DNA of 24,000 nt, from NCBI RefSeq assembly GCF_027853335.1, contig NZ_JAFEUS010000002.1:1014514-1038513 (forward strand), read 5' to 3'. Position 1 is the first letter of the stretch; every line of letters begins with the position of its first letter. Position numbers and translations under genes: made by a program. The DNA comes from Leucobacter sp. UCMA 4100 (GTDB lineage: Bacteria; Actinomycetota; Actinomycetes; Actinomycetales; Microbacteriaceae). Of this stretch, positions 2,988 to 19,595 are shown piece by piece. Below the pieces are notes generated by a model, which did no database searches, had not been told where the DNA came from, and saw only the letters and a program-made list of their open reading frames with translations.

Positions 2988-3011
2988 ACACGGCGAAACA
3001 TTTCGCGGTGT
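2988..3011. promoter_or_regulatory. 24-bp imperfect palindrome ACACGGCGAAAC/ATTTCGCGGTGT upstream of the sulfonate-type ABC operon
   Basis: 10 of 12 positions pair. It lies 68-91 nt upstream of the ATPase start at 2920. GGTGTCAC repeats flank it at 2962-2969 and 2972-2979, with GGTGTGAC at 3007-3014. Confidence 0.3.
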
Positions 3012-3130
3012 GACGCGAGTGGCGCGCGAGTTTAGCGGGGTTCGCGTTCGGGGCTACGCTGCTACACCCGGCCTCGCGCACACTGGGCCGATGGCAGCCT
3101 GCGTCTGGGCTTCTCCTGCGCCCCGAGGCT

Positions 3131-3218
3131 CGCCGAGTGAGTATGCGTTCGCCGACAGAGCATCGAATACACGCGTTTTTCATGCTTAGTCGGCAAAACG
3201 ATACTCAGTCGGCGAAAC
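3131..3218. repeat. Copy A of an ~84-bp element with terminal inverted repeats, at the left island border
   Basis: CGCCGAGTGAGTAT (3131-3144) is the inverted repeat of ATACTCAGTCGGCG (3201-3214) with 1 mismatch. It has an internal tandem 19-bp unit: atgcttagtcggcaaaacg / atactcagtcggcgaaacg. It shares exact 18-mer and 19-mer blocks with copy B. Confidence 0.8.
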
Positions 3219-3281
3219 GGTTTTCATTTAGCACCGTATTGTGGGTCCCAGAAGCCCTTACAACCTCGTCATAACACTGCT

Positions 3282-4070
3282 TTAAGAGCTGAGATGTGAG
3301 AGGAACTGTTTCAGATGTGGCGACTGCGGTTCTGCGATCATTCTCGTTGCTTCTCCGAGTTCTTCGATCACCCCGTCACGCATGAAAGCGATTCGATCTG
3401 CAACGTGTTGCGCAAAGTGCATCTCGTGCGTCACCACAATCATTGTCATGCCCTCCTCAGCAATCTCACGCATAACATGCAGTACTTCACCGACAAGCTC
3501 AGGGTCAAGAGCAGAGGTTGGTTCATCGAACAGCATGAGTTTTGGCTCCATAGCAAGGGCACGCGCAATGGCCACCCTTTGCTGCTGACCACCTGAGAGC
3601 TGCGAAGGATAGTGATTTGCCCGGTTTGAAAGACCCACCCGTTCGAGATACTGCAGCGCTTTTTTCTTGGCGTCAGAGCCCGAAATGCGCAGTACTTTCT
3701 TCAGGCCAATCGTGACGTTTTCAACGACTTTGAGGTGCGGGAACAGGTTGAAGTGTTGAAACACCATTCCAATGTGCCGCCTAGACGCTGCAAGCTCTTT
3801 GTCAGTCGCTTCGTACAAGCGCCCTCTGTCCTCGGTCGCGCCTACCAAACGCCCGTCGACAGAGACATATCCTTTATCGAGTGGCTGCAAGGCGTTAATC
3901 GTGCGCAGCAACGTCGACTTGCCAGAGCCTGAGGCGCCAATAAGGCACAGCACCTCGCCCTCGTGAACATCGAGGTTCACGCCGCGAAGAACGTGGTTTT
4001 CACCAAAACTGACATGAATGTTGTTCATCTCAACAAGTGGGGTTTGCCAATCGATAGTCATACCGTTCAC
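3282..4070 (-). CDS. Polar amino acid ABC transporter ATP-binding protein (GlnQ/HisP-like)
   Basis: Walker A GASGSGKST, signature LSGGQQQRVAIARALAMEP and Walker B LMLFDEPTSALDPE. The ORF opens with GTG at 4070 (a GTGA overlap with the permease stop). The ATG at 4061 has GAGGA 9 nt upstream and is the likelier start. Confidence 0.9.
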   Translation of the reverse strand: MNGMTIDWQTPLVEMNNIHVSFGENHVLRGVNLDVHEGEVLCLIGASGSGKSTLLRTINALQPLDKGYVSVDGRLVGATEDRGRLYEATDKELAASRRHIGMVFQHFNLFPHLKVVENVTIGLKKVLRISGSDAKKKALQYLERVGLSNRANHYPSQLSGGQQQRVAIARALAMEPKLMLFDEPTSALDPELVGEVLHVMREIAEEGMTMIVVTHEMHFAQHVADRIAFMRDGVIEELGEATRMIAEPQSPHLKQFLSHLSS

Positions 4071-4987
4071 TCCTCAGAAACTGACAGTTGTGCCGCGCCA
4101 GCGACGCTTCGGGACATACGTTTTTCAAGGATTCTCTGGCCAAGAGAGGCAACAAACACCAGAATCAAGTACCAGGCAGAGACAACCAAAAGCAGCGGCA
4201 CCACTTGAAAGTTCTGGCCGTAAATGCGTTGAGCCATAGTGAGCAGATCGCCGCCGCCGATCACCGCGACAAGGGAGCTTGCTTTCAAGAGCAAGATGAA
4301 GAGGTTACCGGTGGCAGGGATGATCACTCGAATTGCCTGCGGCATCACAATGTGGATCATCGCCTGCTGCCTTCTCATTCCAAGCGCTTGCGCCGCCTCA
4401 GCCTGGCCGGGAGAGACCGCGAGTAAACCGCCTCGAATAATCTCGGCCATAAATGCTGATTCGTGAAGGCCAAGACCAATGATTGAGGCGGTAAAACCGG
4501 TGATGAAAGTATTGGTGTCAATTGAGAGTCCGAACACCGGGGGAAACCCGAGAACAATATTCGGCGCAAAAAGCGCCAGGTTGTAGGTGAAGAGTAACAG
4601 CACGAGGAGCGGCAGGCCGCGAAAGAACCCGACGTAGCCCTTCGCGAAGAGCTGCAGTACAGGGTTCTCTGATCGCATCATCATGGCGACCATAAACCCG
4701 ATAATGATAGCGACCGTCACACCGATCAGCGAGAGCTGGATCGTCTTCCAGAGCCCCTGCATAATCATCGGAGAGAAAAAGAACTCCCCGAAAACATCCC
4801 ACTGGACCCTCGGGTTTGATGCAAATGCCCAGGCAGCCCAACCGACCAGACCCACAATTGCGGCGCCCACAATCCAGTGATCCGGCCGTTGGCGTTTGGT
4901 CGGTGCTTGCGCAGCATCGATGCCTGCCCAGTTAATCTGCCGAGTCACAGGGGTACGACGAGTTTCTACAGACTTTCCGTTGTCCAT
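4067..4987 (-). CDS. Polar amino acid ABC transporter permease (His/Glu/Gln/Arg/opine family)
   Basis: 306 aa with an EAA-loop region GQAEAAQALGMRRQQAMIHIVMPQA and multiple TM segments. An AAGGGAAG RBS lies before the ATG. Confidence 0.85.
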   Translation of the reverse strand: MDNGKSVETRRTPVTRQINWAGIDAAQAPTKRQRPDHWIVGAAIVGLVGWAAWAFASNPRVQWDVFGEFFFSPMIMQGLWKTIQLSLIGVTVAIIIGFMVAMMMRSENPVLQLFAKGYVGFFRGLPLLVLLLFTYNLALFAPNIVLGFPPVFGLSIDTNTFITGFTASIIGLGLHESAFMAEIIRGGLLAVSPGQAEAAQALGMRRQQAMIHIVMPQAIRVIIPATGNLFILLLKASSLVAVIGGGDLLTMAQRIYGQNFQVVPLLLVVSAWYLILVFVASLGQRILEKRMSRSVAGAAQLSVSEE

Positions 4988-5012
4988 TGTCTTCCCTTTC
5001 TCAAAGTTGCGA

Positions 5013-5041
5013 GGGAGGGGCCGTCTGCTGCGACCCCTCCC
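5013..5041 (-). terminator. Intercistronic GC hairpin GGGAGGGG-N13-CCCCTCCC just after the SBP gene
   Basis: Perfect 8-bp stem starting 7 nt downstream of the SBP stop (5048) and upstream of the permease RBS. There is no U-tract, so it is more likely an attenuator or mRNA-stability element than a full terminator. Confidence 0.45.
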
Positions 5042-5047
5042 ATGCCG

Positions 5048-6043
5048 TTATTCGAGCCCGCAGGCTCCACAGAGCTCTGGATCTTCAAGCGGTCGAGTCT
5101 CACCAAGATTGATTCCCGGTTCGAGCAGGGCAAGCTCTTCAAGGTTCCATTTCTTCAGCGCCTCCTGGTATGTCCCATCGGCGATAGCAGCTTCAAGGGC
5201 GCCTGTGAGGGCTTTGGCAAGGTCGGTTTCGTCTTTGCCTACGACAATCCCGTGATAGTCAGACGGAATGAGCGGGCTCGCGAAGCTTTCCACTTCTCTT
5301 CCCTGCGACTCCTGCCACCGTGCAGTCGCCAGGCTGGTAAAGGTTGCATTAATCTGGCCTGCTTCAAGAGCCGTTGACACATCTGCTGCAGAAGGAAACT
5401 CGGTCACGGCAAGCGGGGGCAAACCATTTGCTTCGCAGTTTTGTGAGAATACCTCTGCGTTCTGCACAAAGTTCGTGGCAGTCTGCACCCCTGCTTTCAC
5501 ACCGCACATACTTAGCGGGTTCTCAGTAACTCCCGCCGGGTTAGCTTTCATGACCATCAGGCCGTTTGCCCCGTAAGCGTTATCGACGAAGGTCACAACC
5601 TTTCGCCGTTCTTCGTTGTCAGAAATACACTCCATGGCACCTTGAAACCTGCCGCTTTGCACGCCAGGAATCAAACCGTCAAATTGCAGGGCCTCCTGCC
5701 GAATTTCGACCCCAAGGTGCGGCTCCATGACCTTGAGAATGTCATGATTGTAGCCAGCAATATCACCCGTCGAGTTATCGACGAAGTCACACGGCGGGTA
5801 GCCAGGATCAGTTCCTATGATGAGGACCCCCGACTTCTGCACCTCTTCCGGGAGAAGCTGAAATAGCTCGTTATCGCCCTGGTCGGTCTTCGGAGATTGC
5901 GCACCGTTGCCTCCCGTCGATCCGCATCCGGTCACAGCGAGCGCTACGGCGGCCGCGGCACCGACGATACTGAGCCAGCTCCGTGCTTTACGTGATGATC
6001 TTTCAAACATGATGGTTCCTTTTCTTGTCGCGTTCCTCGTCAT
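5048..6043 (-). CDS. Amino acid ABC transporter substrate-binding lipoprotein (family 3 SBP)
   Basis: Signal peptide with lipobox LAVTGCGS and a periplasmic-binding-protein-like body, adjacent to the PAAT permease and ATPase. The likely true start is the ATG at 6010 (MFERSS…), preceded by AAGGAA. The 6043 ATG has no RBS. Confidence 0.75.
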   Translation of the reverse strand: MTRNATRKGTIMFERSSRKARSWLSIVGAAAAVALAVTGCGSTGGNGAQSPKTDQGDNELFQLLPEEVQKSGVLIIGTDPGYPPCDFVDNSTGDIAGYNHDILKVMEPHLGVEIRQEALQFDGLIPGVQSGRFQGAMECISDNEERRKVVTFVDNAYGANGLMVMKANPAGVTENPLSMCGVKAGVQTATNFVQNAEVFSQNCEANGLPPLAVTEFPSAADVSTALEAGQINATFTSLATARWQESQGREVESFASPLIPSDYHGIVVGKDETDLAKALTGALEAAIADGTYQEALKKWNLEELALLEPGINLGETRPLEDPELCGACGLE

Positions 6044-6055
6044 TGAGGTGAGCGA

Positions 6056-6754
6056 CTAGATGAGTTGTTTACTGAGTTCTACGACGTGCTTACGAATGAA
6101 CACGCCATAGGTTTGTAGGTCTTGTTCAGAAAGCCGAAACGATGGGCCGATCACGCTAATCGCGGCCACAATTTCTCCAGACGAATTCATGATGGGGGCT
6201 GCAACAGCCGCGGCATCGGGCTCGACTCTGGTCGCTCGAGAACACGCAAAGCCCCGCGGCCCCACGTCGTTCTCGAGCGCGGCACCGATCGCGGTGCCCG
6301 TAGTATCGATCGTTTTACCAGCCCAGCTCGCGTGCCGAATAGCGCGCGAGCTTTCAACCTGCCGCAAGTAAACGGCTTCCCGCTTACCCGAAATAACCGC
6401 CAGGTAGGCTGTCTCGCCGGTGTACTCAGAAATTGCTTTCAGATGCTTCTCGGCCAACTCATACAGCGAGTACCGGCTCAGCGTTTGAGCCCCGAGTTGC
6501 ACGAGTACGCGGCCGGGCCGGTAGGTTGCAGAGTCACCACGAAAAAGAAATTCAGCGCGTTCAAGCGTTTTCAGATGCCGCGCAACCGTCGTAACCGGAA
6601 GCATGCTGCTGCGCGCTACATCACTGAGAGTGAGCCCCTCATCAGATTCCGCGACTATGCGCAAAATATCGAGCGCCTTATCAACACTGTTTCTCGTTTT
6701 CTGTTCGTCGTCGAGCGTGGTCATGCCCGACAGCGAATCCTTGATCTGCTCCAT
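6056..6754 (-). CDS. IclR family transcriptional regulator
   Basis: N-terminal wHTH SVDKALDILRIVAESDEGLTLSDVARSSMLPVTTVARHLKTLE followed by an IclR-type effector domain. 232 aa. Confidence 0.8.
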   Translation of the reverse strand: MEQIKDSLSGMTTLDDEQKTRNSVDKALDILRIVAESDEGLTLSDVARSSMLPVTTVARHLKTLERAEFLFRGDSATYRPGRVLVQLGAQTLSRYSLYELAEKHLKAISEYTGETAYLAVISGKREAVYLRQVESSRAIRHASWAGKTIDTTGTAIGAALENDVGPRGFACSRATRVEPDAAAVAAPIMNSSGEIVAAISVIGPSFRLSEQDLQTYGVFIRKHVVELSKQLI

Positions 6755-6805
6755 TGCAACCCCAATACACCGTTGTATGTTTGTCGTTGTTCGTGTGAAA
6801 GTGTT

Positions 6806-8233
6806 CTACTCCATAAAGTCTTCCCTGAACCCTTTCCGTTCAATGATCTTCGCAGTGTCTTCGGGGGAAAGGTACGCTTCAAACTGAAGATTTTCGAACC
6901 CAGGATGGGGCAGGTCAGCCTGCTCAGGAAACCCAGCGAGTGGTCTCGTGGCATCGATCCCTACCTTTGCAGTGAGCGTGTCTGAGCCGATGGGCGTGAA
7001 GAACTGTTTTGCGCTCGGGTCCATGCGGATGCCCTTCATGCTTTCTAACCTGACGGTGTCAACGTCGGCTTGTACCCGAACATCAGCAGCCCAGAGCACC
7101 CTTCCTGTATCGAGCACATCAATATCGTCATCGACAACGATCACGTTTTTTAAGAAGTGATCGGTTGCGAAGGCGGCAAGAATAGCTTGTTTTCCGTCGC
7201 CTTCTTTGCGTTTTTTCACCGAAATATAGGCGCTAAACGAACCACCATGAAACGGGATTCGAGCAGCAACAGCGCCAGGAACCGATCGGCGCACTCCCTC
7301 GAGCAGACGCGCCTCACGGCCAGGGTAGAGCCAAAGACACAGGTGCTCAGCGTGAGTAGGGTGAAGGTCAAGAAAGATCGGGTTGCGGCGGTGCGTTACC
7401 GCGGTAATCGTACATACCGGAGCTTTTGCTTCACCGTAGTGATACGAGAACTCTCCGAATGGCCCCTCACTCAACATGTCGTGCGGGTCGACGACACCTT
7501 CGAGTATCATCTCTGCTTCAGCCGGCACCGGTAGATCTACCGAAACTGCCGGTGTCACCCGTAACGATTCGTTCAGTAGCCCTCCAACGATCTCGTGACT
7601 ATCGACGGCGACAGTATTTTTCACCTGTGAACCCACCAGGTATGCCGGGTGATGCCCGATGATAACCGCAATGGGAACCTTCTCTTGGCGTTCTCGTGCC
7701 GCCGCAAAAATTCGGCCGAGGTCATGGTCAGGAGCAGCGTTTACCGTGATCGTATGAGAGCCCGTCACCATCATGCGGTACATGCCGGTATTGAGTTTTC
7801 CGGTTCTCGGATCACGAGCGAGCACTACCCCAGCCGTAATGTACTCACCAGCGTCTGACTTAGAATGCTGCGCAAAGGGCATAGCTTTGAGGTCAATTTC
7901 GGCCTCTTGCAACACCACTTCTTGGCTTGCAGCATTCGATACGGTTATGGGCTCAGGGAGTTGCTCGAATGGCAGCTGGATAGCCCTTTCGACAAGCTCG
8001 CCTTTGTCAATACCGAGCGAGCGGGCGAGCCGCGCGCGGGTACCAAACGTTCCCATCACCACAGGCCACGGGCTGCCAGCAACCGATTCGAACTGCACCG
8101 CTGGCGCCCCATAAGGTTCGAGGGCCTTAACAACAGACAGGATCTCCGGCCCCTTGGTTACTGGCCGACGCACCCTCAAGAGTTCGCCGCTCTCTTCGAG
8201 CGCCGAAAGGTATTCCTGAAGATTCGGGTTCAT
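6806..8233 (-). CDS. UbiD-family (prFMN-dependent) reversible decarboxylase
   Basis: 475 aa. It has a UbiD-like N-terminus (…LEESGELLRVRRPV…) and an EGPFGE motif (E-x4-E) corresponding to the catalytic Glu loop of Fdc1/UbiD enzymes. An ATGA overlap joins it to the upstream lyase gene, and ubiX is in the same operon. Confidence 0.85.
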   Translation of the reverse strand: MNPNLQEYLSALEESGELLRVRRPVTKGPEILSVVKALEPYGAPAVQFESVAGSPWPVVMGTFGTRARLARSLGIDKGELVERAIQLPFEQLPEPITVSNAASQEVVLQEAEIDLKAMPFAQHSKSDAGEYITAGVVLARDPRTGKLNTGMYRMMVTGSHTITVNAAPDHDLGRIFAAARERQEKVPIAVIIGHHPAYLVGSQVKNTVAVDSHEIVGGLLNESLRVTPAVSVDLPVPAEAEMILEGVVDPHDMLSEGPFGEFSYHYGEAKAPVCTITAVTHRRNPIFLDLHPTHAEHLCLWLYPGREARLLEGVRRSVPGAVAARIPFHGGSFSAYISVKKRKEGDGKQAILAAFATDHFLKNVIVVDDDIDVLDTGRVLWAADVRVQADVDTVRLESMKGIRMDPSAKQFFTPIGSDTLTAKVGIDATRPLAGFPEQADLPHPGFENLQFEAYLSPEDTAKIIERKGFREDFME

Positions 8234-9768
8234 GATGCATTGCCTACGAGTGGTACCGCTCCATGAGGAAGGTACGATCCGCTCAAAATATCGGCCGCCA
8301 CAGCCTCCATATCGTTCGCAAGGGCCCGATCTTGATCGAGGTACTGTGAACGGGCACGAACAAGCTCAAACACCGGCTTTAACGCTGGGGCGCTCGGGCC
8401 ACCATCACGCATTTCTGACCCCTGGGCTGCTGCCAAAAGCTCGATTGCTACAACGTAGGCCGCGTTTTGGGCCATCGGCTGCAGTCGAACACCGCCGTGC
8501 GTCGCCATACTGACGTGATCTTCTTGCCCAGCTGAGGTCGGAATGCTGTCAACGCTGGTGGGAAAGGCCTTGGTCTTATTTTCAGCGACGAGCGCTGCTG
8601 AGGTGACCTGCGCCATCAGAAACCCTGAGTTCAGTCCGGCGCCTTCAACCAAGAACGGCGGTAGCCCAGACATCGAGGTATCAACGATCATTGCCGTGCG
8701 CCGCTCAGTGATCGAACCGATTTCGCACAGCGCCATCGCGATCATATCTGAGGCAAAGGCAACCGGCTCACCGTGAAAGTTGCCTCCAGAAAGCACGACT
8801 TCGTCGTCTGGAAAGACGAGAGGATTATCTGAAACTGCGTTGGCCTCACGCTCCAAAACTCGCGCTGCTTGTTCTAGCAGGTCGAGCGAAGCGCCAAAAA
8901 CCTGGGGCATGCAACGCAAGCTGTACGGATCTTGTAGCCTGCGGCCTTCGAATTCGTGAGCAAGAATCTCGCTTTCAGCGACGAGGTTTCGAAGCGAAGC
9001 TGCAACGGTTATCTGGCCAATCTGACCACGAATCGCTTGGATGCGAGCGTCAAGTGCTTCCTGCCGCCCCGCTGTTGCTTCGAGGGTCAGCGCCCCCGCT
9101 GTAATCGCGGCGTTCAACACCTTTTCTGCGGCAAAAAGCCCTTGAAGCGCAAGCGCTGTCGAAGCTTGAACACCGTTGATGAGGGCAACACCCTCTTTCG
9201 GGCCCAGCTCAGCCGGATCAAGGCCAACACTGCGCAGACCCTCAACGGCGTTATAGATTTTGCGCCCAATACGCACCTGCCCGTGCCCTGTCATGACGCC
9301 TGCCATGTGCGAGAGAGGTGCCAGGTCGCCAGAGGCCCCGACAGAACCCTGACTTGGAATCACCGGAAGCACATCGTGGTTGATCATGTCGAGCAGCAGT
9401 TGGACAACTTCAAGTCTTAGACCCGAATGTCCCTGGCACAATGACAGCAGCTTTACCACCATCATTCCCCGCACCGTTGCCTCGCCAAACGATGGGCCGA
9501 CACCTACCATATGAGACTCGACAACTCTGCGCTGGAGTTCGAGTAGCTCGTCTTTGCTAATACGCCGATCAGCGAGTTTGCCAAACCCTGTGTTGACACC
9601 GTAGATCACGTCGCCGCGAGCAACCAGATCGGTGATGACCTTGTGAGCTCGTTCAATACGTTCTCTGGTTTCGTTCGAGAGTTCAACCGTGACCGGGCCT
9701 TCAAAAGGCAAGCGCAAGTCATCGAGTGTTGCTTTTGCCGTGCTAATAAGAATGTGTTGAAACATCAT
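8230..9768 (-). CDS. hutH: MIO-dependent ammonia-lyase, histidine ammonia-lyase type
   Basis: Contains the GSVGASGDLAPLSH (Ala-Ser-Gly MIO triad). YGVNTGFG, KEGVALINGVQAST, QDPYSLRC, GGNFHGEPVA and PTSAGQEDHVSMA all align without gaps to Pseudomonas putida HAL as recalled from memory. The selectivity position reads S-H (ESHMVG) as in HAL. I moved the start from the track's 9807 to the ATG at 9768, which has a GAAAGGA RBS and avoids an overlap with ubiX. Confidence 0.85.
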   Translation of the reverse strand: MMFQHILISTAKATLDDLRLPFEGPVTVELSNETRERIERAHKVITDLVARGDVIYGVNTGFGKLADRRISKDELLELQRRVVESHMVGVGPSFGEATVRGMMVVKLLSLCQGHSGLRLEVVQLLLDMINHDVLPVIPSQGSVGASGDLAPLSHMAGVMTGHGQVRIGRKIYNAVEGLRSVGLDPAELGPKEGVALINGVQASTALALQGLFAAEKVLNAAITAGALTLEATAGRQEALDARIQAIRGQIGQITVAASLRNLVAESEILAHEFEGRRLQDPYSLRCMPQVFGASLDLLEQAARVLEREANAVSDNPLVFPDDEVVLSGGNFHGEPVAFASDMIAMALCEIGSITERRTAMIVDTSMSGLPPFLVEGAGLNSGFLMAQVTSAALVAENKTKAFPTSVDSIPTSAGQEDHVSMATHGGVRLQPMAQNAAYVVAIELLAAAQGSEMRDGGPSAPALKPVFELVRARSQYLDQDRALANDMEAVAADILSGSYLPHGAVPLVGNAS

Positions 9769-9794
9769 TGTCCTTTCTGAAGTGTGAAGATCAT

Positions 9795-10355
9795 TTATTC
9801 GGTCCACCGTGTCACCAGGGTTGTCTCGATACCGAACTGGTCGAGCATTCTGCCCACCCCTTCGTCGATGACCTCGTCGATGCTGGTCGGCCTGTTATAG
9901 AACGCTGGCACCGGGAGGCACACCGTTGCGCCTGCGAGTGTCACGGTCTCCATATTTCTGATGTGAATCAGGTTGAGCGGTGACTCGCGCAGCAGGAGCA
10001 CAAGCGGCCTCCGTTCTTTCAACGTCACATCGGCGGCCCTCGCGAGGAGTGTTGTTCCCCCACCGTTCGCGATGTCTGCGATTGATCGCGCCGAGCACGG
10101 GGCCACGACCATTCCCCGGGTCTGAAACGACCCTGATGCGATACTCGCAGCCATGTCTCTCGGGGAGTGGACGTAACTCGCGAGGTTTTTCACCTCTTTC
10201 GCGGTCATATCAAGCTCATATGAAAGCGTCAGCTCGGCCATTTTGGAAATCACGAGGTGCGACTCAATCTCAAGCTCACGAAGGACCTCAAGCAGCCTCA
10301 CCCCGTACTGAACGCCGCTCGCACCACTGATACCAACAACAATGCGGTTCGTCAT
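9795..10355 (-). CDS. ubiX: UbiX flavin prenyltransferase (prFMN synthase)
   Basis: 186 aa. RIVVGISGASG…, SGSFQTRGMVVAPCS, LKERRPLVLLLRE and PVPAFYNRP are collinear with E. coli UbiX. Confidence 0.9.
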   Translation of the reverse strand: MTNRIVVGISGASGVQYGVRLLEVLRELEIESHLVISKMAELTLSYELDMTAKEVKNLASYVHSPRDMAASIASGSFQTRGMVVAPCSARSIADIANGGGTTLLARAADVTLKERRPLVLLLRESPLNLIHIRNMETVTLAGATVCLPVPAFYNRPTSIDEVIDEGVGRMLDQFGIETTLVTRWTE

Positions 10356-11878
10356 GACGCACGCACCTTGATATTCACCGATTTCAGTTCAACGAAGCTC
10401 GCGAGTTCGTCAGCCGACTCTTCTCGGCCGACACCGCTCTTGCCCATACCGCCGAACGGTGAGCCAGGATAGTGCCGATTAGCATCGTTCACCCAGATAT
10501 ATCCGGCCTGTATCGATTCAGAGACTCGCAGCGCCCGATCAAGATCATGGGTCCATACAGCCGCTGAAAGACCATACTCCGTCTCGTTGGCAAGCCGCAC
10601 AGCCTCGGCCTCATCTGCAAACGGCATCACAATGGCAACGGGTCCAAACACCTCTTGAGAGAACAAACTCATCTGCTCGGTCACACCGGTTAGCAAAGTG
10701 GGTTTGAGGTAGTAGCCCCCGGCATGTTGTTCTTGCGAGCCCTCTCCCGTCGCTTTATCTTCGGAACCTGACCCACCGGCCACCAGCGTTGCACCCTCGT
10801 GAACGGCCTGGTCAATCATGCCGCGCACCGTTCGAAGGTGCTCGAGTGAGACGACTGGCCCCATTTCAGTGTTCTCTTCATACGCCGGCCCGACACGAAG
10901 CCCCTCCATTTTGCGGCTTAGCGCAGTGACGACCTCAGCGAAGATCGTTTGTTGAACGAGAATTTTGGCGGTCGACTGGCAGCTTTGGCCTGCGCTCACC
11001 GTGAAGCTCAGCCCGGCAAAGGCTGCCTCAGTTGCCTCAGCGACATCGCAATCATCAAACATCACAAACGGGTTCTTGCCACCGAGTTCCGCGCTAAAGT
11101 GCTTCACAGTGCCGCTCGTCGAAAGCCGTTCTTGAATCGCAAGCGCGGTTCTATCACTGCCGGTAAAAGCGATACGCTTCACTTCAGGATGGGTCACCAA
11201 TGCATCTCCTGCTTCAGCGCCTCCACCAAGAATATTGACCAGCCCATCAGGCAGCGTTCCTTTCAACACTGCACCGAGCGCGAGTGTCGAAAGCGGCGTC
11301 TGTGCAGAGGTTTTAATCACGAGCCCATTACCCGCCATGAGCGGAAAAATGGCCCCTGCAAGAGCGAAAAGCAACGGGTGATTGTACGCAATAATTTTTC
11401 CCACAACACCATATGGCTCTGCTGAGATGAGCGAAAAACCGTCACGGTGAGGCTTCGTAAAACGTCCGTGTTGTGCAGCAGCAGTGCCTGGCCACTCAGC
11501 GAGGTATTTCAAGGCGAGCCCGACATCCCGACGAGTTGAAGCAAGCGGGTTACCGCTATCAACAGATTCAAGAAAAGCAAAATCTTCAGCTAGCGCCGAG
11601 AATTTCTCGCGTACTTGCGAAAACACGAGTGCTCGTTCCGAAGGAGTACGGGCCCGCCACTCGCGCTGAGCAACCAGAGCCGCATCAACCGCAACGCCGA
11701 TCTCTTCTCGGTTGCTCTCAGGAGCCGAGGTGAATTCAAGACCCGTCGAAGGATTAAACACCGGTTTATTCTCAACGGGTTCAACCCAGCCGCCGTTCAC
11801 GAAGTTCTTTGGCACCCCGTCAGCCCAAAAAGTACGCAGCACCAGATCAATATCTGTCTGCCTCTGTTGTTCGCTCAT
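10352..11878 (-). CDS. NAD(P)+-dependent aldehyde dehydrogenase
   Basis: 508 aa with the catalytic Glu motif ELGGKNP, the Cys motif SAGQSCQS, and FTGS and PFGG(M)GKSG motifs. ATGA overlaps occur at both ends. Confidence 0.85.
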   Translation of the reverse strand: MSEQQRQTDIDLVLRTFWADGVPKNFVNGGWVEPVENKPVFNPSTGLEFTSAPESNREEIGVAVDAALVAQREWRARTPSERALVFSQVREKFSALAEDFAFLESVDSGNPLASTRRDVGLALKYLAEWPGTAAAQHGRFTKPHRDGFSLISAEPYGVVGKIIAYNHPLLFALAGAIFPLMAGNGLVIKTSAQTPLSTLALGAVLKGTLPDGLVNILGGGAEAGDALVTHPEVKRIAFTGSDRTALAIQERLSTSGTVKHFSAELGGKNPFVMFDDCDVAEATEAAFAGLSFTVSAGQSCQSTAKILVQQTIFAEVVTALSRKMEGLRVGPAYEENTEMGPVVSLEHLRTVRGMIDQAVHEGATLVAGGSGSEDKATGEGSQEQHAGGYYLKPTLLTGVTEQMSLFSQEVFGPVAIVMPFADEAEAVRLANETEYGLSAAVWTHDLDRALRVSESIQAGYIWVNDANRHYPGSPFGGMGKSGVGREESADELASFVELKSVNIKVRAS

Positions 11879-13182
11879 CCGCGCATACCTCCATCGTTCA
11901 CCGTGCGTAAGCGTGAGAAAACTGAAGTCTGAATACTCTGGCCAGCTTCTTTAAGATGCACCTCGAGTGGGTGCTCGTCGGTGTTCACCCCGTTCATCTG
12001 AGCAACGACCAGGTCAACCAGAAAATCACCAGCGACCGGAGCCGTTTTAAATTGGTTTCCGCTCGTACCGATCGCTATGAAGACACCTGGCTGATCAGTC
12101 TTATCAAAAATCGGTAGCCAGTCATCAGTGACGTCATAGAGACCGGCAACGCCCTTAGGAATCGCTGTAAGCGCAAGCGAAGGAATGCGTCTTGCAGCTC
12201 GCCCGGCCTGGCGATACCAACCATCGCGAGTTGCATCGCTCCGATATTTATTTGAGTCAGAAATGAGCTCTTCACCGTCAACCGGGTCTCCCGATGAACC
12301 GACCATGAACCCATCTTTGCCCTCTGGCCGAAAGTTAATACCAAGGTCACCGTCAACAATATGGGCCGGGTTTTTGATTTCTTCAGAGGCCGTTACATGG
12401 TGTAGCTCTTGGCGAATAATGCGCTGCCCAACAGTAAAGTCATTACCCACGCCCAGAAGCCGGTTAACTTCTATCGAGGCGGGTCCAGCCGCATTAACGA
12501 CGTTCGCCGACTCGAGCACATTGCCATCCTGTAAGGTCAACTGCCAGTTTCCACCTGCACCGCGAGAAGCGCCCACAACGCGTTGCCCCATAACAAAGTG
12601 TGCGCCAAGCCTGCGAGCTTTTTGCGCAAGATTCTGTGCTGCGAGAGCGGGGTCAGCAACGTACCCTGAGCTCGCGGTATGCAACGCCCGTTCGATCAGG
12701 CCGTCGGGTTCTTTCCAAAACTCTTCGGAGTCGGGGTGAGCCGGCGGCCCGAACTTCTCAAGGTCTGCCCATGGCAGTTCTTCTTGCAACGTATCGTGGC
12801 CAAGGAACGAAAAGCCAATGCCATTTGCTTCGAGCACCGCAGCATACTTATCGAGGGTCTCGTTGTGGTCTTCAAGAATGAACGTGCCACATTGGACAAA
12901 CTCAGCAGCAGCTTCACTCGCAGGAACCCCAACAAAATCGCGCCAGTTCTTCCACGCAAATACTGACTCATGCGACATAAGACTGCTTGCAAAGTCACCG
13001 GCATGAACACGAACGATTCCAGCCGAAGCGCTCGTCGACCCAAACCCCGGCGTGGGGTTCGCGTCGATGACGGCAACGCTCAAGCCACGTTGAGCCGCGG
13101 CCACCGCGATTGACGTGCCGACGATTCCGGCCCCGATAATCGCGAGGTCAACACTATGACCTCTGAGATGAGCAGTTTGCAT
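11875..13182 (-). CDS. FAD-dependent oxidoreductase, DAO (D-amino-acid/sarcosine/glycine oxidase) family
   Basis: Dinucleotide fold DLAIIGAGIVGTSIAVAAAQRG…VAVID followed by GSTSASAGIVR. The start was trimmed from 13320 to the ATG at 13182, which has GGAGGGG 4 nt upstream. The 46 upstream codons cross the promoter region and look non-coding. Confidence 0.75.
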   Translation of the reverse strand: MQTAHLRGHSVDLAIIGAGIVGTSIAVAAAQRGLSVAVIDANPTPGFGSTSASAGIVRVHAGDFASSLMSHESVFAWKNWRDFVGVPASEAAAEFVQCGTFILEDHNETLDKYAAVLEANGIGFSFLGHDTLQEELPWADLEKFGPPAHPDSEEFWKEPDGLIERALHTASSGYVADPALAAQNLAQKARRLGAHFVMGQRVVGASRGAGGNWQLTLQDGNVLESANVVNAAGPASIEVNRLLGVGNDFTVGQRIIRQELHHVTASEEIKNPAHIVDGDLGINFRPEGKDGFMVGSSGDPVDGEELISDSNKYRSDATRDGWYRQAGRAARRIPSLALTAIPKGVAGLYDVTDDWLPIFDKTDQPGVFIAIGTSGNQFKTAPVAGDFLVDLVVAQMNGVNTDEHPLEVHLKEAGQSIQTSVFSRLRTVNDGGMRG

Positions 13183-13216
13183 TTCCCCTCCATCGCCTTT
13201 GACTGAATACAGGAAA

Positions 13217-13279
13217 ATTAACAAACTCTTCCCACCATTTGGCAATAGTTTCCGCCTAGCGGGAAACAAAATTATTTCC
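13217..13279 (-). promoter_or_regulatory. Putative island-operon promoter (TTGCCA-17-GTTAAT on the minus strand) with an adjacent GTTTCC/GGAAAC palindromic operator candidate
   Basis: The -35 is at 13245-13240 and the -10 at 13222-13217. The overlapping palindromes GTTTCC-N8-GGAAAC (13248-13267) and GGAAAC-N7-TTTCC (13262-13279) lie immediately upstream of the -35. Confidence 0.3.
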
Positions 13280-13331
13280 TGGGTAGCTACCAAAGCTAGG
13301 AAGGCCCGGCGGCTCCTCAAGAACTAGGGTT

Positions 13332-13414
13332 CGCTCAGTGAGTATGCGTTCGCCGGCTGAACATGAAAACGCGTCGATTCGATACTCAGTCGGCGAAACA
13401 ATGCTCAGTCGGCG
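13332..13414. repeat. Copy B of the ~84-bp TIR element, at the right island border
   Basis: GTGAGTATGCGTTCGCCG (13338-13355) and GATACTCAGTCGGCGAAAC (13381-13399) are identical to blocks in copy A. A second 19-bp unit, atgctcagtcggcg, lies at 13401-13414. The outer 6-7 nt of the left arm are degraded at the island junction. Confidence 0.8.
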
Positions 13415-13452
13415 CACCCACGCCCGCTCGGCGGCGGAGGATGGTCGGCGAG

Positions 13453-15030
13453 CTACGCCTCCGCCGCGCGCCAGTGCCGCTGGAGCGCACGCCCGCCGGC
13501 GAGGCACGAGAAGTAGCAGAGCGTGGCTGCCGCGCAGAAGATGAGCAGCGGCACAATGCGCGGGGCGTCACGCAAGATGGTTACGCCCCACAGGGAGAAG
13601 CTCACGAGCGTGATGAGGGCGGCGGCGACGGGCGGCCAATCGCTGAGGGGCAGCATCGTCGGGTAAGTGACTTTTGAGACGAAGCGCAGGTGGAAGCTGC
13701 TGGCGATCCACCCAGCAATGTTCGCGAGGGCAATGGTCGCGGCAATTGCCGGAACCACGAGGTGCGAGGGCAGGGCGAGCGAGGCGATGAGCGTTCCGGT
13801 GACGGTGACCGAGGCGACCGTGAGTTGGGCGTAGAACGGCGCCTTTGCGTTGTTGCGGGCGAGGCTCACGCGGTTGAGCAGGTAGGTCTGGCTGATGGCG
13901 AGCACCCCGACGGCGAGTATCTGGGCGACGGTGCCGACGTGCGGGGTGCCCCAGGCGATGAGCGAGAGGGTTGGCGCCGTCAGCACGATCACGACGACGG
14001 CGAAGAGCATGAGGCTGTTGATCTTGCGGCTCACCGAGGCCGCCCCGTCGATGAATCGTGGATCGTTCGGCGTCGAAGCGTTCAGGGCGATGTCGGGAAA
14101 CGCGCTGGTCACGAGCGCGACCGTGAACACCCCGTGCGGCACGAGCACGATGAGCGTTGCCGTCGCGAGCGTGTTGAAGCTCGCACCGTCGGCGCCCGCG
14201 AGGTTGATGGCCTCGCCCGCGGCGTTTGCCACGTTAGCGATCGTGATGGTCGCGACCTGGCCGAAGATCGCCCCGGCGAAGGTCCACCCCGCGAGCTCTG
14301 AGACGAGCCGCATGCCTGAGACCGAGAAACGCAATCGCAAGCGAATGCCCGAGCGCGCGGTCGCGATGATGAGTATCGCGGTTTGCACGGCGGTCGCGAG
14401 CGTCGCTGACCCGCACAGCACGGCGACCATCGTGGGGCTCCAGCTCTCGACTGGCCCGAGGCCTGAGGGCAGCAGCCAGGCAAAGACCAGCAGCCCAGCG
14501 ATGCCGACGAGGTTCGAGCAGGCGGGCGCCCACGCCGCAGCCTGAAAGCGTTTGTTGGCATTGAGCACCTGCGAGAGCACCGCAAACACGATGAGAAAGA
14601 ACAGCTGTGGAATGCACCAGTACATCATCTGTACCGTGAGCCCCTTCCACGCGGGGCTCCACTGGTAGGCGTAGAGGTTCACGAGCAGCGGCGCACCGAT
14701 CATGAGCAGCGCCGTAACCGCGAGGCCGCCCCACAGCGCGATCGTGAAGAGCTGGTTGACGAACCGCTGCCCCTGCTCGCCCTGCTGCATCGCCCTCACG
14801 AGGCTCGGCAAGAGCACCGCGCCGAGCACCCCGCTCGAGATGAGCGTGAACACGTACTGCGGCACCGAGCTCGCGACCTCGAACGCTTGGCCGCCAACGT
14901 GCGCCGCCGTGCCGCCAATGACCGCGACGAGCACGACGACCTTCACGAAGCCGAGCAGCCGCGAGACCAGCACCGCGAGCGCGATGCCGAAGGCGGGACC
15001 CCGCAATCGGGGCGCAAACTGCGTGAGCAA
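13453..15030 (-). CDS. murJ: MurJ/MviN-like lipid II flippase (MOP superfamily)
   Basis: 525 aa and polytopic. The N-terminus …VSRLLGFVKVVVLVAVIGG…AFEVASSVPQYVFTLISSGVLGAVLLPSLV matches the MurJ signature region. Confidence 0.6.
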   Translation of the reverse strand: MLTQFAPRLRGPAFGIALAVLVSRLLGFVKVVVLVAVIGGTAAHVGGQAFEVASSVPQYVFTLISSGVLGAVLLPSLVRAMQQGEQGQRFVNQLFTIALWGGLAVTALLMIGAPLLVNLYAYQWSPAWKGLTVQMMYWCIPQLFFLIVFAVLSQVLNANKRFQAAAWAPACSNLVGIAGLLVFAWLLPSGLGPVESWSPTMVAVLCGSATLATAVQTAILIIATARSGIRLRLRFSVSGMRLVSELAGWTFAGAIFGQVATITIANVANAAGEAINLAGADGASFNTLATATLIVLVPHGVFTVALVTSAFPDIALNASTPNDPRFIDGAASVSRKINSLMLFAVVVIVLTAPTLSLIAWGTPHVGTVAQILAVGVLAISQTYLLNRVSLARNNAKAPFYAQLTVASVTVTGTLIASLALPSHLVVPAIAATIALANIAGWIASSFHLRFVSKVTYPTMLPLSDWPPVAAALITLVSFSLWGVTILRDAPRIVPLLIFCAAATLCYFSCLAGGRALQRHWRAAEA

Positions 15031-15132
15031 ACGTGACCTTATTCTCTCGGCTGATTGCTTTGAGTGTAGCCCTCACCACTGACACATTCGCGGCGGATCA
15101 CCCCGCGCACGCCCCTGCCAACGCACCCATGT

Positions 15133-15216
15133 CGCCGAGTGAGCATCGCTTCGCCGAAAGCACATGGAATCGACGCGATTTGGATGCTCACTCGACGAAA
15201 CGATGCTCACTCGGCG
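15133..15216. repeat. Copy C of the ~84-bp TIR element (core-genome intergenic)
   Basis: Perfect 16-bp terminal inverted repeat CGCCGAGTGAGCATCG (15133-15148) / CGATGCTCACTCGGCG (15201-15216). The internal tandem units gatgctcactcgacgaaac / gatgctcactcggcg are collinear with A and B. Confidence 0.8.
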
Positions 15217-15696: not shown

Positions 15697-15938
15697 ACTT
15701 CTACTCTGGCCAGAGAGGCCGCCACCCACATCGGGCCAGGGTATGAAGGTCACGCGCAGGCGTTGCACCTGGGTGCCATATGGCGTCGCGCCGTGGGCCG
15801 CGCAGGTCCAGGCGTCACACCGTGAGCCACACCGGGTCACGCGCCGAGCGGGCAGGCTGGCAGCTTGGCGATGCAGCCCAGCACAGTGGAAGGGTTGGAA
15901 CCCTGGTCAACGCGCGCAGTTCTCGCTACGGTGGCCCC

Positions 15939-16271
15939 ATGGCCATCGTCACGATCGTCTTAAGCCTCATCGCGCTCGCATCGGTGCAGCTGCCAGCGGC
16001 GGGCCTTGTTGGCCCAAACCGACTGCTCGGCATCAGGGTGAGTAGATCGCTCGCGAGCCCCGAGGCCTGGCGACGCGTGCACCGGCGCGCGCTTCCATTT
16101 TCGTGGGCTGGCACGATCGCCTGCTGGGTGCTCGTGACGCTCTCGTACACGAGCGCCCTTCCGGCAGCACTCACGCTTGCCCTCGCAGCGGCGGTTCTTG
16201 GGCTGGTGCTCGGCGCGTGGGCTGGCGTCGCCCGTGAGCGGCGCCTCGAGGCTGGCCGGCTCAGAGCGTAG
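15939..16271 (+). CDS. SdpI/YhfL-family small membrane protein
   Basis: Starts at MAIVTIVLSL… The motif GPNRLLGIRVSRSLASPEAWRRVHR matches the SdpI family signature, and there are 3 TM segments. The track ORF start at 15780 is probably an over-extension. Confidence 0.5.
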   Translation: MAIVTIVLSLIALASVQLPAAGLVGPNRLLGIRVSRSLASPEAWRRVHRRALPFSWAGTIACWVLVTLSYTSALPAALTLALAAAVLGLVLGAWAGVARERRLEAGRLRA

Positions 16272-17501
16272 CTACGCCTTCAGCCCCTCGACGAGCGGCA
16301 CCAGGGCGTCAACGAGCGCGCGAGCGGTCTCGCCCTTCGAGCCCTCGGCCTGACCCACGAGTGAGCCTCCCGCTTCGAGCAACCACAGGTGGTTGTGCTC
16401 CTTCTCAAAGCCCTGGCTCCACCCGACCGCGTTCACCGCGAGCAGATCGCAGCCCTTGCGCGCAAGCTTCGCACGGCCCCGCTCGAGCAGTTCTTCATCA
16501 TTCGCGACCGTCTCAGCCGCAAAGCCAACGAGCACGGGCTTCGCCAGATTCGATGAGCCCCTGGCGTCGACGAGGCCCCGCAGAATATCGGGATTTTCGA
16601 CGAGATTCAGGTGCAGAGACTCGCCCTGATCCGCCTTGCGAAGCTTGCCATCGGCAACCTCGGCCACGCGGTAATCTGACACGGCCGCGGCCATAACGAT
16701 CGCGTCGGCGCTCGCGGCGAGCAGGTGCACCGCGGCCTCAAGCTCGGCGGTCGAGCCCACGCGCGAAACCTCGATCGACGAAGCCAACCCCTCAAGCAGC
16801 CGCTGCTCGATGTTCGCCGCGATGAGCGTCACCGCAGCACCGCGCCGCGCCGCCTCAGCCGCGACCTCGATGCCCTGCCTGCCGCTCGACCGATTGCCGA
16901 TAAAGCGCACCGGATCGATCGGCTCGCGGGTACCGCCCGCGGTCACGAGCACGCGACAGCCGGTGAGGTCTTGCGCGACCGAGCTGAGCGCCATCGCCCG
17001 CTCAAAAATCTGCTCGGGTTCGGTCATACGGCCGAGCCCGCTGTCGGTCCCGGTGAGTTCGCCCGCCTCAGGCCCCACGAAGTGCACGCCACGCTCGCGC
17101 AGCGTGTGCACATTCGCCTGGGTCGATGCGTGCTGCCACATCTCAGTGTGCATCGCGGGGGCCACGAGCACGGGAGCCTTCGAAGCGATGAGCGTGGTGC
17201 CGAGCAGGTCATCGGCAATGCCCGCCGCCATCTTTGCGAGCGTGTTCGCCGTGGCGGGAGCAACCACGATGAGGTCGGCCTCCTGCCCCAGCCGCACGTG
17301 CCGCACCTCGGGCACGTCTTCATGCACGCTCGTCGTGACGGGATTGCGGCTCAGCGCCTCCCACGTCGGCTTGCCAACAAACTCGAGCGCGTTCTCGGTC
17401 GGCACCACCGTGACCGTGTGCCCCGCCTTGACCATAAGCCGCACGAGATGCACCGTTTTGTAGGCCGCGATGCCGCCTGTGACTCCCACCACGATTTTCA
17501 T
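16272..17501 (-). CDS. coaBC: Bifunctional phosphopantothenoylcysteine decarboxylase / phosphopantothenate-cysteine ligase
   Basis: MKIVVGVTGGIAAYK flavoprotein N-domain with PAMHTEMW, then the CoaB domain (VTAGGTREPIDPVRFIGNRSSG, AAVSDYR). Start taken at the ATG at 17501. Confidence 0.9.
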   Translation of the reverse strand: MKIVVGVTGGIAAYKTVHLVRLMVKAGHTVTVVPTENALEFVGKPTWEALSRNPVTTSVHEDVPEVRHVRLGQEADLIVVAPATANTLAKMAAGIADDLLGTTLIASKAPVLVAPAMHTEMWQHASTQANVHTLRERGVHFVGPEAGELTGTDSGLGRMTEPEQIFERAMALSSVAQDLTGCRVLVTAGGTREPIDPVRFIGNRSSGRQGIEVAAEAARRGAAVTLIAANIEQRLLEGLASSIEVSRVGSTAELEAAVHLLAASADAIVMAAAVSDYRVAEVADGKLRKADQGESLHLNLVENPDILRGLVDARGSSNLAKPVLVGFAAETVANDEELLERGRAKLARKGCDLLAVNAVGWSQGFEKEHNHLWLLEAGGSLVGQAEGSKGETARALVDALVPLVEGLKA

Positions 17502-17570
17502 ACTCTCATCATTGCACCCGAAGCTGCCCGGCGGGTGATCACCCATCGAGAAGCGGTTACGATCGAGGGT

Positions 17571-18323: not shown

Positions 18324-18578
18324 CTACGCTGCTTGCTCTGGCAGCCTGCCCACCACGATGGAGCCCGCAATAAGGCTCGCCGCGAGCGGCAACCCGAAGA
18401 AACCCAACAGCTTCACGAACCATTGCACGAGGGCAAACAGCAGCTGATTCTGGGGCGCGAACGAAAAGAGCACCTCGTTCATGAGCAAGAGCGCGATGAC
18501 CCCGCCAACGAGCAGGCCAATCGCCCAGTTGCGCATCTTCTTCGCGAGCTCTCGGTTGGTCGTAATTTCACTGGACAT
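18324..18578 (-). CDS. Small hypothetical membrane protein (84 aa, 2 predicted TM helices)
   Basis: An ORF with two clear hydrophobic stretches. No family was recognised. Confidence 0.4.
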   Translation of the reverse strand: MSSEITTNRELAKKMRNWAIGLLVGGVIALLLMNEVLFSFAPQNQLLFALVQWFVKLLGFFGLPLAASLIAGSIVVGRLPEQAA

Positions 18579-18790
18579 TGCTCTCCCGGCCTCTCATTAC
18601 GCCGCGGGAAACCCCCGCGCTTCCTGAGGCCACGAGCCCTGACAAGCCGTATCACGACCGCGTGACGCTCTCACCACAGGCTCGCACAGACCCGCGTCTG
18701 GCGCAAGGACAACGGGGATGGGGTGGTGCTGGCGTGATCCGCAGCGTGGGTTCGGTGGCGACCTTCATGCCCAGCTCGAAGCACCTACGC

Positions 18791-18828
18791 AAAAGCCCCT
18801 CCCACCGATCAGAGTGGAAGGGGCTTTT
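18791..18828 (-). terminator. Rho-independent terminator downstream of tRNA-Thr
   Basis: AAAAGCCCCTCCCA-N10-TGGAAGGGGCTTTT forms a 13/14-bp stem. T-runs follow on both strands, so it could be bidirectional. Confidence 0.7.
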
Positions 18829-18836
18829 GTTCTCTG

Positions 18837-18909: not shown

Positions 18910-18986
18910 CTGTGCACAAACTTCTGCGCACAAAAGAATACGTTAGCACGATTTGCTCGTGAGAAAGAAATCGGTACGCTTCACAT

Positions 18987-19588: not shown

Positions 19589-19595
19589 AAACGTG

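Follow-up and report, generated by a model that had tools for sequence, protein, structure and literature searches.

The stretch analysed here, hereafter the window, comprises 24,000 nucleotides from Leucobacter sp. UCMA 4100 (assembly GCF_027853335.1, contig NZ_JAFEUS010000002.1, positions 1,014,514 to 1,038,513), and all coordinates refer to it unless another contig is named. Between murJ and the operon of a NitT/TauT-type ("ssu-like") ATP-binding cassette (ABC) transporter lies a block of 10,392 bp (3060–13451) that is very probably a metabolic island, acquired horizontally and variable between strains, of a deep-branching Microbacteriaceae genome. Its cargo is a complete self-regulated unit, in which a six-gene catabolic operon is joined to an ABC importer of the polar amino acid type. 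The operon encodes an FAD-dependent oxidoreductase of the DAO family, an aldehyde dehydrogenase (ALDH), a UbiX flavin prenyltransferase, a histidine ammonia-lyase (HAL, HutH), a UbiD-family decarboxylase and an IclR-family regulator. An earlier note, made from the letters of the sequence, had proposed the recent acquisition of such a module from a lower-GC donor. The acquisition itself is supported by the base composition, by an empty allele in a related strain, by the native GC content of the homologous operon elsewhere and by the fact that no mobility genes were found in the island, while the age and the donor need qualification. Seen as a genomic island, the block is a textbook case, and its main value lies in being a base-resolved example from a poorly sampled Microbacteriaceae lineage.

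The compositional change that the note had described at both edges from hand counts is large and significant in each of the measures used. In a sliding window, the GC content drops from 0.63–0.69 outside to 0.51–0.60 within approximately 3000–13300 and returns to 0.64–0.70 beyond, and a two-change-point likelihood fit placed the breaks at 3135 and 13410, separating segments of 0.670, 0.551 and 0.665. The GC content at third codon positions (GC3) is 0.525–0.701 in the nine inner genes vs. 0.762–0.890 in ten flank genes (island approximately 0.58, host approximately 0.82), and in a larger set with 13 flank genes the island and flank values also do not overlap (Mann-Whitney p = 1e-4). Codon adaptation, calculated against the host flank set with a leave-one-out scheme, is likewise without overlap (0.39–0.47 for the island and 0.50–0.80 for the host). 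A lack of any GC or codon discontinuity, which the note had named as a reason to give up its interpretation, is thus not what the sequence displays, and the deviating composition and codon usage (GC 0.55 vs. 0.67, p = 1e-4) are those of a genomic island. The window UbiD has a FYMINK fraction of 0.198 and a K/(K+R) ratio of 0.40, compared to 0.12–0.16 and 0.15–0.27 in most of its homologues. This amino acid composition is of the low-GC type, indicating that the island signal goes beyond synonymous sites, and it would fit a long residence in a lower-GC donor.

The limits of the block were defined by a strain that lacks it. Logan contig L117 (ERR15441380, strain C), retrieved by an exact protein match of the ssu-type binding protein, which is identical in L117 and the window strain, carries the ssu ATPase gene 133 bp after murJ. 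In the alignment, L117 follows window 18746–13452 with approximately 96% identity (96.0%–96.6% in two segments split by a variable spot at 15810–15888) and then resumes straight at window 3059–566 with 99.0% identity, lacking exactly the 10,392 bp of window 3060–13451. On the minus strand, the empty allele reads GGCGGAGGCGTAGC directly followed by CCCGAACGCG; in the occupied allele, GGCGGAGGCGTAGC is followed by TCGCCGACC and, at the far end of the 10,392 bp, GGGTGTAGCA by GCGTAGC and CCCGAACGCG. A 7-bp direct repeat (GCTACGC on the plus and GCGTAGC on the minus strand) flanks the block; its left copy (3053–3059) marks the point where the shared flank resumes in the empty allele, while the right copy (13452–13458), located by comparison of the junctions, overlaps the murJ stop codon (13453–13455). 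Just inside these copies are two GC-rich outer segments of 70 nt (3060–3129, GC 0.73) and 37 nt (13415–13451, GC 0.78), both missing from L117. The edges given in the note, 3219 and 13331, are therefore those of the low-GC cargo and not of the variable block, which the empty allele sets at 3060–13451, and they leave out two 85–91-nt hairpins at the edges. The presence or absence of a block at one site among close relatives, as seen with L117, is typical of genomic islands, as are flanking direct repeats, represented here by the 7-bp GCGTAGC and by the two edge hairpins in direct orientation. The note had suggested searching for a relative in which murJ adjoins the ssu-like operon, and would have dropped its interpretation if all relatives carried the block; L117 joins the two loci. 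Its expectation of a single repeat copy at such a site was not borne out, as no 85-nt repeat is present there and only one 7-bp copy remains. The island junctions are the same in three NCBI assemblies (L001, L003, and L116) and several Logan runs.

The low GC content is not intrinsic to these genes. The six-gene core DAO-ALDH-UbiX-HAL-UbiD-IclR is found in the same order in L087, L089, Curtobacterium sp. MCBD17_019 (L124), and Ornithinimicrobium faecis (L125), with a variant of the operon in L088, and is conserved across several actinobacterial orders. L087 also keeps the order of the solute-binding protein and permease genes, has electron transfer flavoprotein (ETF) genes upstream, and shares 63%–81% amino acid identity with the island. 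The GC contents of L087, L088, and L089 are 0.69, 0.63, and 0.72, respectively, with no local dip; since the homologous operon has a high GC content elsewhere, the low value in the window reflects history and not function. Further UbiD homologues come from Propionicicella, Microbispora, and Microtetraspora. At the other operon loci, the transporter genes are divergent or absent, and this variation identifies the island as the combination of a catabolic operon with a transporter module. The window UbiD forms a long branch in a neighbour-joining tree and is sister to P0002–P0004 at 68%–73% identity, while the homologues of low-GC amino acid composition (P0005, P0011, P0012, P0014, and P0046) group elsewhere. 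Among plasmids, the whole block has no megablast match and the best UbiD is less than 38% identical, and no relative of UbiD was found on viral contigs. The DNA has probably resided for a long time in an unsampled lower-GC actinobacterium.

The cargo (3221–13329) is framed exactly by two long hairpin repeats. Hairpin L (3130–3220) is 91 nt long with a stem of approximately 40 bp, lies 61 nt past the stop codon with which the last island gene ends, and folds with −47.4 kcal/mol (z = −7.6), while hairpin R (13330–13414), delimited by repeat alignment and folding, is 85 nt long and follows the murJ stop codon after 38 nt. A third copy, M (15127–15216), lies beyond the island. All three strain types have it, even the one without the island, and so the hairpin family belongs to the host lineage. 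It is also dispersed in the host, given a fourth copy, F, 4.7 kb left of the window (L114, 15732–15814) between convergent genes for a CoA_binding_2 protein and a 2-phosphosulfolactate-phosphatase-like protein, which brings the census to four copies in approximately 45 kb of host sequence. All four are palindromes composed of inverted doublets of a unit of approximately 19 nt (GATGCTCAGTCGGCGAAAC), with folding energies of −36 to −63 kcal/mol (z = −3.3 to −8.0) and compensatory changes between copies at 10 of 33 pairs. L and R are in direct orientation and form the closest pair (85% identity, compared to 77%–81% with M and 71%–73% with F). L, R, and M are each 35–61 nt downstream of a minus-strand stop codon and F lies between convergent 3' ends; the repeats could plausibly act as terminators or stabilisers. 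Between murJ and ssu, the empty allele is free of hairpins. The family was not found at the other Microbacteriaceae loci examined. A metagenome scan with the 19-nt unit returned 20 single chance matches with neither a second unit nor similarity to the window, viral contigs yielded none, and an Rfam scan of the window matched the tRNA alone and left the hairpins without assignment.

As dispersed intergenic hairpin doublets with a conserved structure, these repeats have the properties of repetitive extragenic palindromic (REP) sequences and REPINs, which they resemble in their long intergenic hairpins, the inverted doublets of approximately 19 nt, the position just 3' of genes and the compensatory changes. 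The subterminal position of the hairpins in the variable block is also reminiscent of IS200/IS605 elements. Unlike in both of these systems, neither a gene for a REP-associated tyrosine transposase (RAYT) nor a TnpA gene is present in the approximately 45 kb of host sequence, and the family is known from four copies. Furthermore, the hairpins are far longer than the end hairpins of IS200/IS605 elements, and a 7-bp duplication is not the footprint of such elements. We know of no REPINs that carry 10 kb of cargo. The framing may hint at the way in which islands free of mobility genes integrate, or it may mean that such repeats colonise new intergenic DNA.

Metabolic islands without mobility genes arise by host recombination, either facilitated by homology or as microhomology-mediated illegitimate recombination. 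In the history that we favour, cargo DNA from a lower-GC actinobacterium would have entered the lineage before the two island-bearing lineages split. Host recombination would have integrated this DNA at or beside a hairpin repeat that follows murJ, as L and R are each other's closest relatives and share their orientation, and the island would later have been lost from one lineage through a 7-bp microhomology deletion. The block resembles other islands of this kind in its foreign composition, its combination of uptake, regulator, and catabolism, its presence or absence at the strain level, the missing integrase or transposase and the short GC-rich microhomology of 7 bp. It differs in that the cargo is framed exactly by two full 85–91-nt hairpins of the host lineage, and the indel may be a gain or a loss. 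A common 7-mer between the two non-coding borders occurred in 77% of shuffles, and a microhomology deletion would thus have been readily available. At a fixed junction, the chance of a 7-mer repeat is only approximately 1.3e-4, marking the 7-bp repeat as a mechanistic footprint; it is equally compatible with a target-site duplication and with a microhomology deletion.

The age of the island can be estimated from a second island-bearing lineage. Lineage B is represented by two contigs, L085 on the murJ side, which ends at window position 13379, and L086 with the island, which starts at 13387, so that both break inside hairpin R. Between the window lineage (A) and B, the identity is 95.9% in the island and 95.7%–96.5% in the flanks, the right junction is the same, and the divergence at four-fold sites is 0.114 in five island genes vs. 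0.097 in murJ, o148, and coaBC. The island and the chromosome have thus co-diverged, and the acquisition predates the split of A and B. The acquisition that the note had called recent is older than the separation of two lineages with approximately 96% identity, and the word holds in a relative sense only. Distances in the murJ region are nearly equal (A–B 0.035, A–C 0.028, and B–C 0.033), and the midpoint root falls on the B branch, suggesting that the island is ancestral and that its absence from C is a secondary loss. On balance, we lean towards an old island that was later deleted in C. The reverse, in which C is ancestral and a unit with hairpin ends was inserted with a 7-bp duplication, has a lesser but substantial probability. 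Under either polarity, the block is accessory DNA of foreign origin.

Several findings speak against the favoured history. The three strains are nearly star-like, with an internal branch of almost zero length that does not distinguish deletion from insertion, and for strain B the right junction alone was seen. No allele representing a pre-island state with one hairpin was observed, and an outgroup is lacking: the next MurJ is 49% identical, and in species-representative genomes neither murJ nor ssu was found beside coaBC by a CoaBC scan and tblastn. The four-fold divergence between A and C is 0.032 on the ssu side vs. 0.074 on the side of murJ, and neither ssu protein has a non-synonymous change. 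This closer similarity on the ssu side points to recombination with a breakpoint at the island site or close to it, which weakens any polarity read from the tree. The lower-GC donor, too, stands only in part. The low GC content is indeed not inherent in the genes, but a donor search by amino acid composition and a neighbour-joining tree named no candidate; the nearest clusters are of high GC at 63%–81% identity, and the nearest UbiD outside the species, at 73%, is encoded on a contig with a GC content of 0.69 (P0002).

The strongest rival is the possible, though in our view doubtful, interpretation of the whole 10,392-bp block as a non-autonomous mobile unit with hairpin ends. Such a unit would have been moved in trans by an HUH/RAYT-like enzyme or a tyrosine recombinase and inserted at GCGTAGC with a 7-bp duplication, making C the ancestral empty site. 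The exact 7-bp direct repeat that bounds the block, with a chance of approximately 1e-4 at a fixed junction, agrees with this interpretation, although the border 7-mer shared in 77% of shuffles means that a microhomology deletion gives the same footprint. Complete hairpins are subterminal at the two ends, with 37 and 70 nt between them and the junctions, and the outer segments of these lengths are GC-rich like the host, suggesting a prior residence in a related high-GC genome. There are, however, no terminal inverted repeats beyond the hairpins, and no second copy of the block is known. That L and R are the most similar pair, that the family is dispersed in the host, and that the empty allele is without any hairpin also fit the movement of a unit, but the approximately 45 kb of host sequence contain no candidate enzyme. 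Finally, the co-divergence of island and flanks and the midpoint root that groups C with A would require either a gain on a branch of near-zero length or a spread by recombination.

The note had stated that mobility genes and a tRNA target are absent, and both statements hold. No Pfam or NCBIfam match to integrase, transposase, or recombinase families was obtained for the nine island genes, and the only tRNA gene in the window, tRNA-Thr (18836–18909), is 5.4 kb from the island. Integration at a tRNA or tmRNA gene and an integrase or transposase of its own, the classical marks of a genomic island, are accordingly missing. That the block is the remnant of an integrative element targeted to this tRNA-Thr, with the integrase lost or on the far side in other strains, is highly unlikely. 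A sibling assembly does have a phage-type integrase gene abutting a partial tRNA-Thr (18836–18878), and integrase elements thus use this neighbourhood, but 5.4 kb of core genes of host composition (murJ, o148, sdpI, coaBC, and TANGO2) lie between the tRNA and the island, the island-free strain retains all of them, and the tRNA has no sequence in common with the island junctions. Least probable of all is that no transfer took place, the block being native DNA of odd composition or, as the host data come partly from metagenome assemblies, a chimeric assembly or binning join: identical junctions on both sides recur in several independent assemblies, contigs (one of 458 kb) run through host flank, hairpin, and cargo, the operon has a GC content of 0.63–0.72 elsewhere, the amino acid composition is shifted as well, and a presence/absence polymorphism exists.

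Two further types of element were considered and rejected. The hairpin ends, GTTTCGC and GCGAAAC, do not fit the RYYYAAC...GTTRRRY pattern of an integron attC site, the window encodes no integrase, and the breakpoints lie outside the hairpins. For a composite transposon or another unit bounded by insertion sequences, a transposase is missing, and by inspection the terminal 35–70 nt contain no inverted repeat. In the sibling assembly mentioned above (GCA_052103675.1), one contig (L119, 1–990) matches the window up to position 18878 inside tRNA-Thr and then continues into the phage-type integrase gene, while another contig has the intact tRNA-Thr and the right flank. A broken and an intact tRNA-Thr in one assembly are the signature of an integrase-bearing element that resides in tRNA-Thr in part of the population.

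All nine island genes are on the minus strand, with overlaps of 4–13 nt at five junctions and spacers of 12, 51, and 60 nt at the other three, as expected from the note's description of co-directional genes with minimal spacing. The DAO-family oxidoreductase gene (11875–13182; PF01266; 435-aa gene call) has its ATG at 13182 preceded by GGAGGGG. The protein has weak PDB matches to 1y56_B and glycine oxidases, and its resemblance to sarcosine oxidase, glycine oxidase, and the beta subunit of proline dehydrogenase is weak as well. The NAD(P)-dependent aldehyde dehydrogenase (10352–11878) is assigned to PF00171 (6e-128), with every NCBIfam equivalog under its cutoff. UbiX (9795–10355; NF004685 score 242.6 vs. 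a cutoff of 188) supplies the prenylated flavin mononucleotide (prFMN) cofactor to UbiD. In GCA_052103675.1 and ERR12057301, a 1-nt insertion near 10166 (CCACTCCCC to CCACTTCCCC) causes a frameshift in ubiX, and in strain B a C-run near 9824 is one base longer, which fuses ubiX in frame with the histidine ammonia-lyase gene into a reading frame of 708 aa; both changes may be sequencing errors or real variants.

HutH (8230–9807; the public gene call starts at 9768) exceeds the TIGR01225 hutH equivalog cutoff (619.6 vs. 539) and matches the Pseudomonas putida HAL with 455 bits. In the alignment to 1GKM and 1B8F, it keeps the ASG motif that forms the 4-methylidene-imidazole-5-one (MIO) group and the equivalents of Y53, S-H83, N195, Y280, R283, F329, and E414. 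With the His-specific S-H and Glu residues among them, the step from histidine to urocanate is well supported by the predicted protein. The UbiD-family prFMN-dependent decarboxylase (6806–8233) has all three UbiD Pfam domains (PF20695, PF01977, and PF20696), scores 307 against TIGR00148 (cutoff 245) and belongs to an HmfF/InD-like branch. Its nearest PDB relatives by phmmer are HmfF (6h6v, 244 bits) and AnInD (172 bits), followed at a distance by Fdc1 (approximately 82–88 bits), and it remains below the equivalogs of specific substrates (VdcC 260 vs. a cutoff of 650; BagN 103 vs. 1000). A three-domain UbiD and a UbiX prenyltransferase together constitute a prFMN decarboxylase system, and the pair is predicted to remove a carboxyl group.

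The operon ends with the IclR-family regulator gene (6056–6754; PF09339 and PF01614), whose position is kept in L087, L089, L124, and L125, and is followed by the importer genes. These encode a family-3 solute-binding protein of the cationic/polar amino acid type (5048–6043; PF00497; the public gene call starts at 6010), the PDB relatives of which bind arginine, glutamine, histidine, or lysine/arginine/ornithine, a permease of the HEQRo type with three transmembrane segments (4067–4987; BPD_transp_1 by Pfam and NCBIfam), and an ATP-binding subunit of the polar amino acid type, GlnQ/HisP-like (3282–4070; PF00005, 2.8e-37; GC3 0.58), with GlnQ, EhuA, and HisP as top NCBIfam matches, each under its cutoff. 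The importer may take up histidine or a histidine-derived cationic amino acid. The region upstream of the operon (13183–13329, minus strand) has a GC content of 0.48 and contains the palindrome GTTTCCGCCTAGCGGGAAAC at 13248–13267, a candidate IclR operator. The window, L086, L087, and L089 all have the conserved palindrome TTnCCGCTnnGCGGnAA in front of the DAO gene, suggesting that the island was carried in with its own probable IclR operator. Together with IclR, the importer, and the catabolic genes, this lends weight to the module of uptake, regulation, and catabolism proposed in the note. The single promoter region that it had placed at 13183–13331 fared less well and stays an inference, as a consensus scan for sigma-70 sites found none there. 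Promoter and terminator consensus scans at both edges of the island gave no promoter either, and the operator palindrome was the sole terminator-like match.

Two routes can be drawn for the catabolic enzymes. In the first (Model A), to which we assign somewhat less than an even chance, the DAO enzyme (with ETF) and ALDH would make a ring carboxylate from an amine-linked one-carbon substituent on a histidine derivative taken up by the cell, UbiD would remove it, and HutH would feed the product into the hut pathway. We favour this model because UbiD groups with HmfF and InD. It uses all enzymes in a single line and is consistent with both the HmfF/InD affinity and the hut neighbourhood of the operon elsewhere: in L089, the operon is directly followed by genes for urocanase, imidazolonepropionase-type amidohydrolases, and HutD, and in L124, hutU/hutI-type genes are near. 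ETF genes also adjoin the homologous operon, or are near it, in other genomes. In the second route (Model B), which appears less probable, HutH and then UbiD would convert histidine via urocanate to 4-vinylimidazole. This fits the tight coupling of ubiX, hutH, and ubiD, with the DAO and ALDH enzymes left unexplained. For the reading of the cargo as a complete histidine-related unit, it is a difficulty that hutU, hutI, and hutG are not among the nine island genes, that the substrates of the DAO enzyme and ALDH are not assignable from sequence, and that a literature search found no natural link of UbiD or prFMN to HAL, histidine, urocanate, or imidazole acids, yielding just a metabolic-model paper on another subject and the engineered route described below. 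Whether as a urocanate decarboxylase or as a one-carbon-stripping funnel before HutH, the cargo could represent an undescribed prFMN-dependent branch of histidine metabolism, with the block possibly moved in trans by a hairpin-recognising enzyme, but we regard this combination as tentative and rather unlikely.

Each of these routes has parallels among known systems. The lyase resembles those of canonical hut operons in exceeding the HutH equivalog cutoff and in its intact catalytic and specificity residues. In contrast to those operons, in which hutU and hutI accompany hutH, the island is without hutU, hutI, and hutG and adds genes for DAO, ALDH, UbiX, and UbiD; we know of no described hut operon that contains these four. 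With Model A, the 2,5-furandicarboxylate decarboxylase HmfF/HmfG (6h6v) is comparable as the nearest solved UbiD, and JGI names the homologues HmfF. The 5-hydroxymethylfurfural (HMF) pathway also follows the same logic, in which a flavin oxidase, an aldehyde dehydrogenase, and a prFMN decarboxylase take a one-carbon substituent off a heteroaromatic ring. The identity is modest, however, the flavoenzyme of the island is of the DAO (amine) type instead of a GMC oxidase, ubiX and ubiD are separated by hutH, and the importer belongs to the amino acid type.

Model B is mirrored by the biosynthesis of bagremycin and ferroverdin, where the tyrosine ammonia-lyase (TAL) BagA/FevV is combined with the UbiX-UbiD pair BagM/BagN (FevK/FevL) and coumarate, which the lyase produces, is decarboxylated to a vinyl-arene, p-vinylphenol in the case of bagremycin (PMC6692506). 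In both cases, an aromatic amino acid ammonia-lyase is encoded together with a UbiX/UbiD pair, but the lyase of the island is a true HutH and not a TAL, and its UbiD is closer to HmfF/InD than to BagN (103 bits). Furthermore, the bagremycin cluster is biosynthetic, whereas the context of the island is catabolic, with the importer, IclR, DAO, and ALDH, and with hut genes nearby elsewhere. The same three enzyme types act on histidine in an engineered route to 4-vinylimidazole in Escherichia coli, composed of HAL, FDC, and UbiX (PMC7225752). This route is synthetic and uses a fungal-type Fdc1, and urocanate is only a candidate substrate of the island UbiD. The operon might nevertheless yield a natural enzyme for 4-vinylimidazole, and its substrate, once known, would extend the UbiD family by one reaction and perhaps histidine or imidazole metabolism by one route.

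The flanks of the island have host composition. The ssu-like operon occupies 58–2920, and on the other side murJ (13453–15030) is followed by a gene for a 148-aa protein (o148), an sdpI-like gene, coaBC, and a TANGO2-like gene. Contigs of GCA_052086265.1 are identical to the window, which two further NCBI assemblies and several Logan runs also contain. Among species-representative genomes, the closest CoaBC is 69% identical and comes from a Leucobacter metagenome-assembled genome, followed by Leucobacter and Microbacterium proteins with 58%–62%. MurJ is unusually divergent, with a best match outside the species of 49% (Cryobacterium) and approximately 33%–35% to Microbacterium and Leucobacter, and it could represent a secondary flippase paralogue that evolves fast. 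Hairpins R and M lie on either side of its gene.

Strain variation is also found on the murJ side beyond the island. Between coaBC and the 148-aa gene, strains B and C have a gene for an AadA_C/NTP_transf_2 nucleotidyltransferase that replaces window 15810–15888, and the strains differ again at 16262–16271; the variable parts correspond to L085 889–3905 and L117 3716–4435. Strain B further encodes an additional TetR regulator and a 383-aa protein after coaBC. The GC content dips to 0.59–0.60 at 18500–19250. At 19449–19593, two tandem palindromes of approximately 56–58 nt (TCGTCTACTTGACGAAAAGCAGGGTG...CACCCTGCTTTTCGTCAAGT), with arms that are 96% complementary and unrelated to the island hairpins, lie upstream of the end of contig 1 of GCA_052086265.1 (approximately 19847–19896). 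Finally, a 530-aa open reading frame on the plus strand opposite coaBC (16725–18317) is a high-GC antisense artefact fused to the TANGO2-like gene, which is publicly called at approximately 17571–18317.

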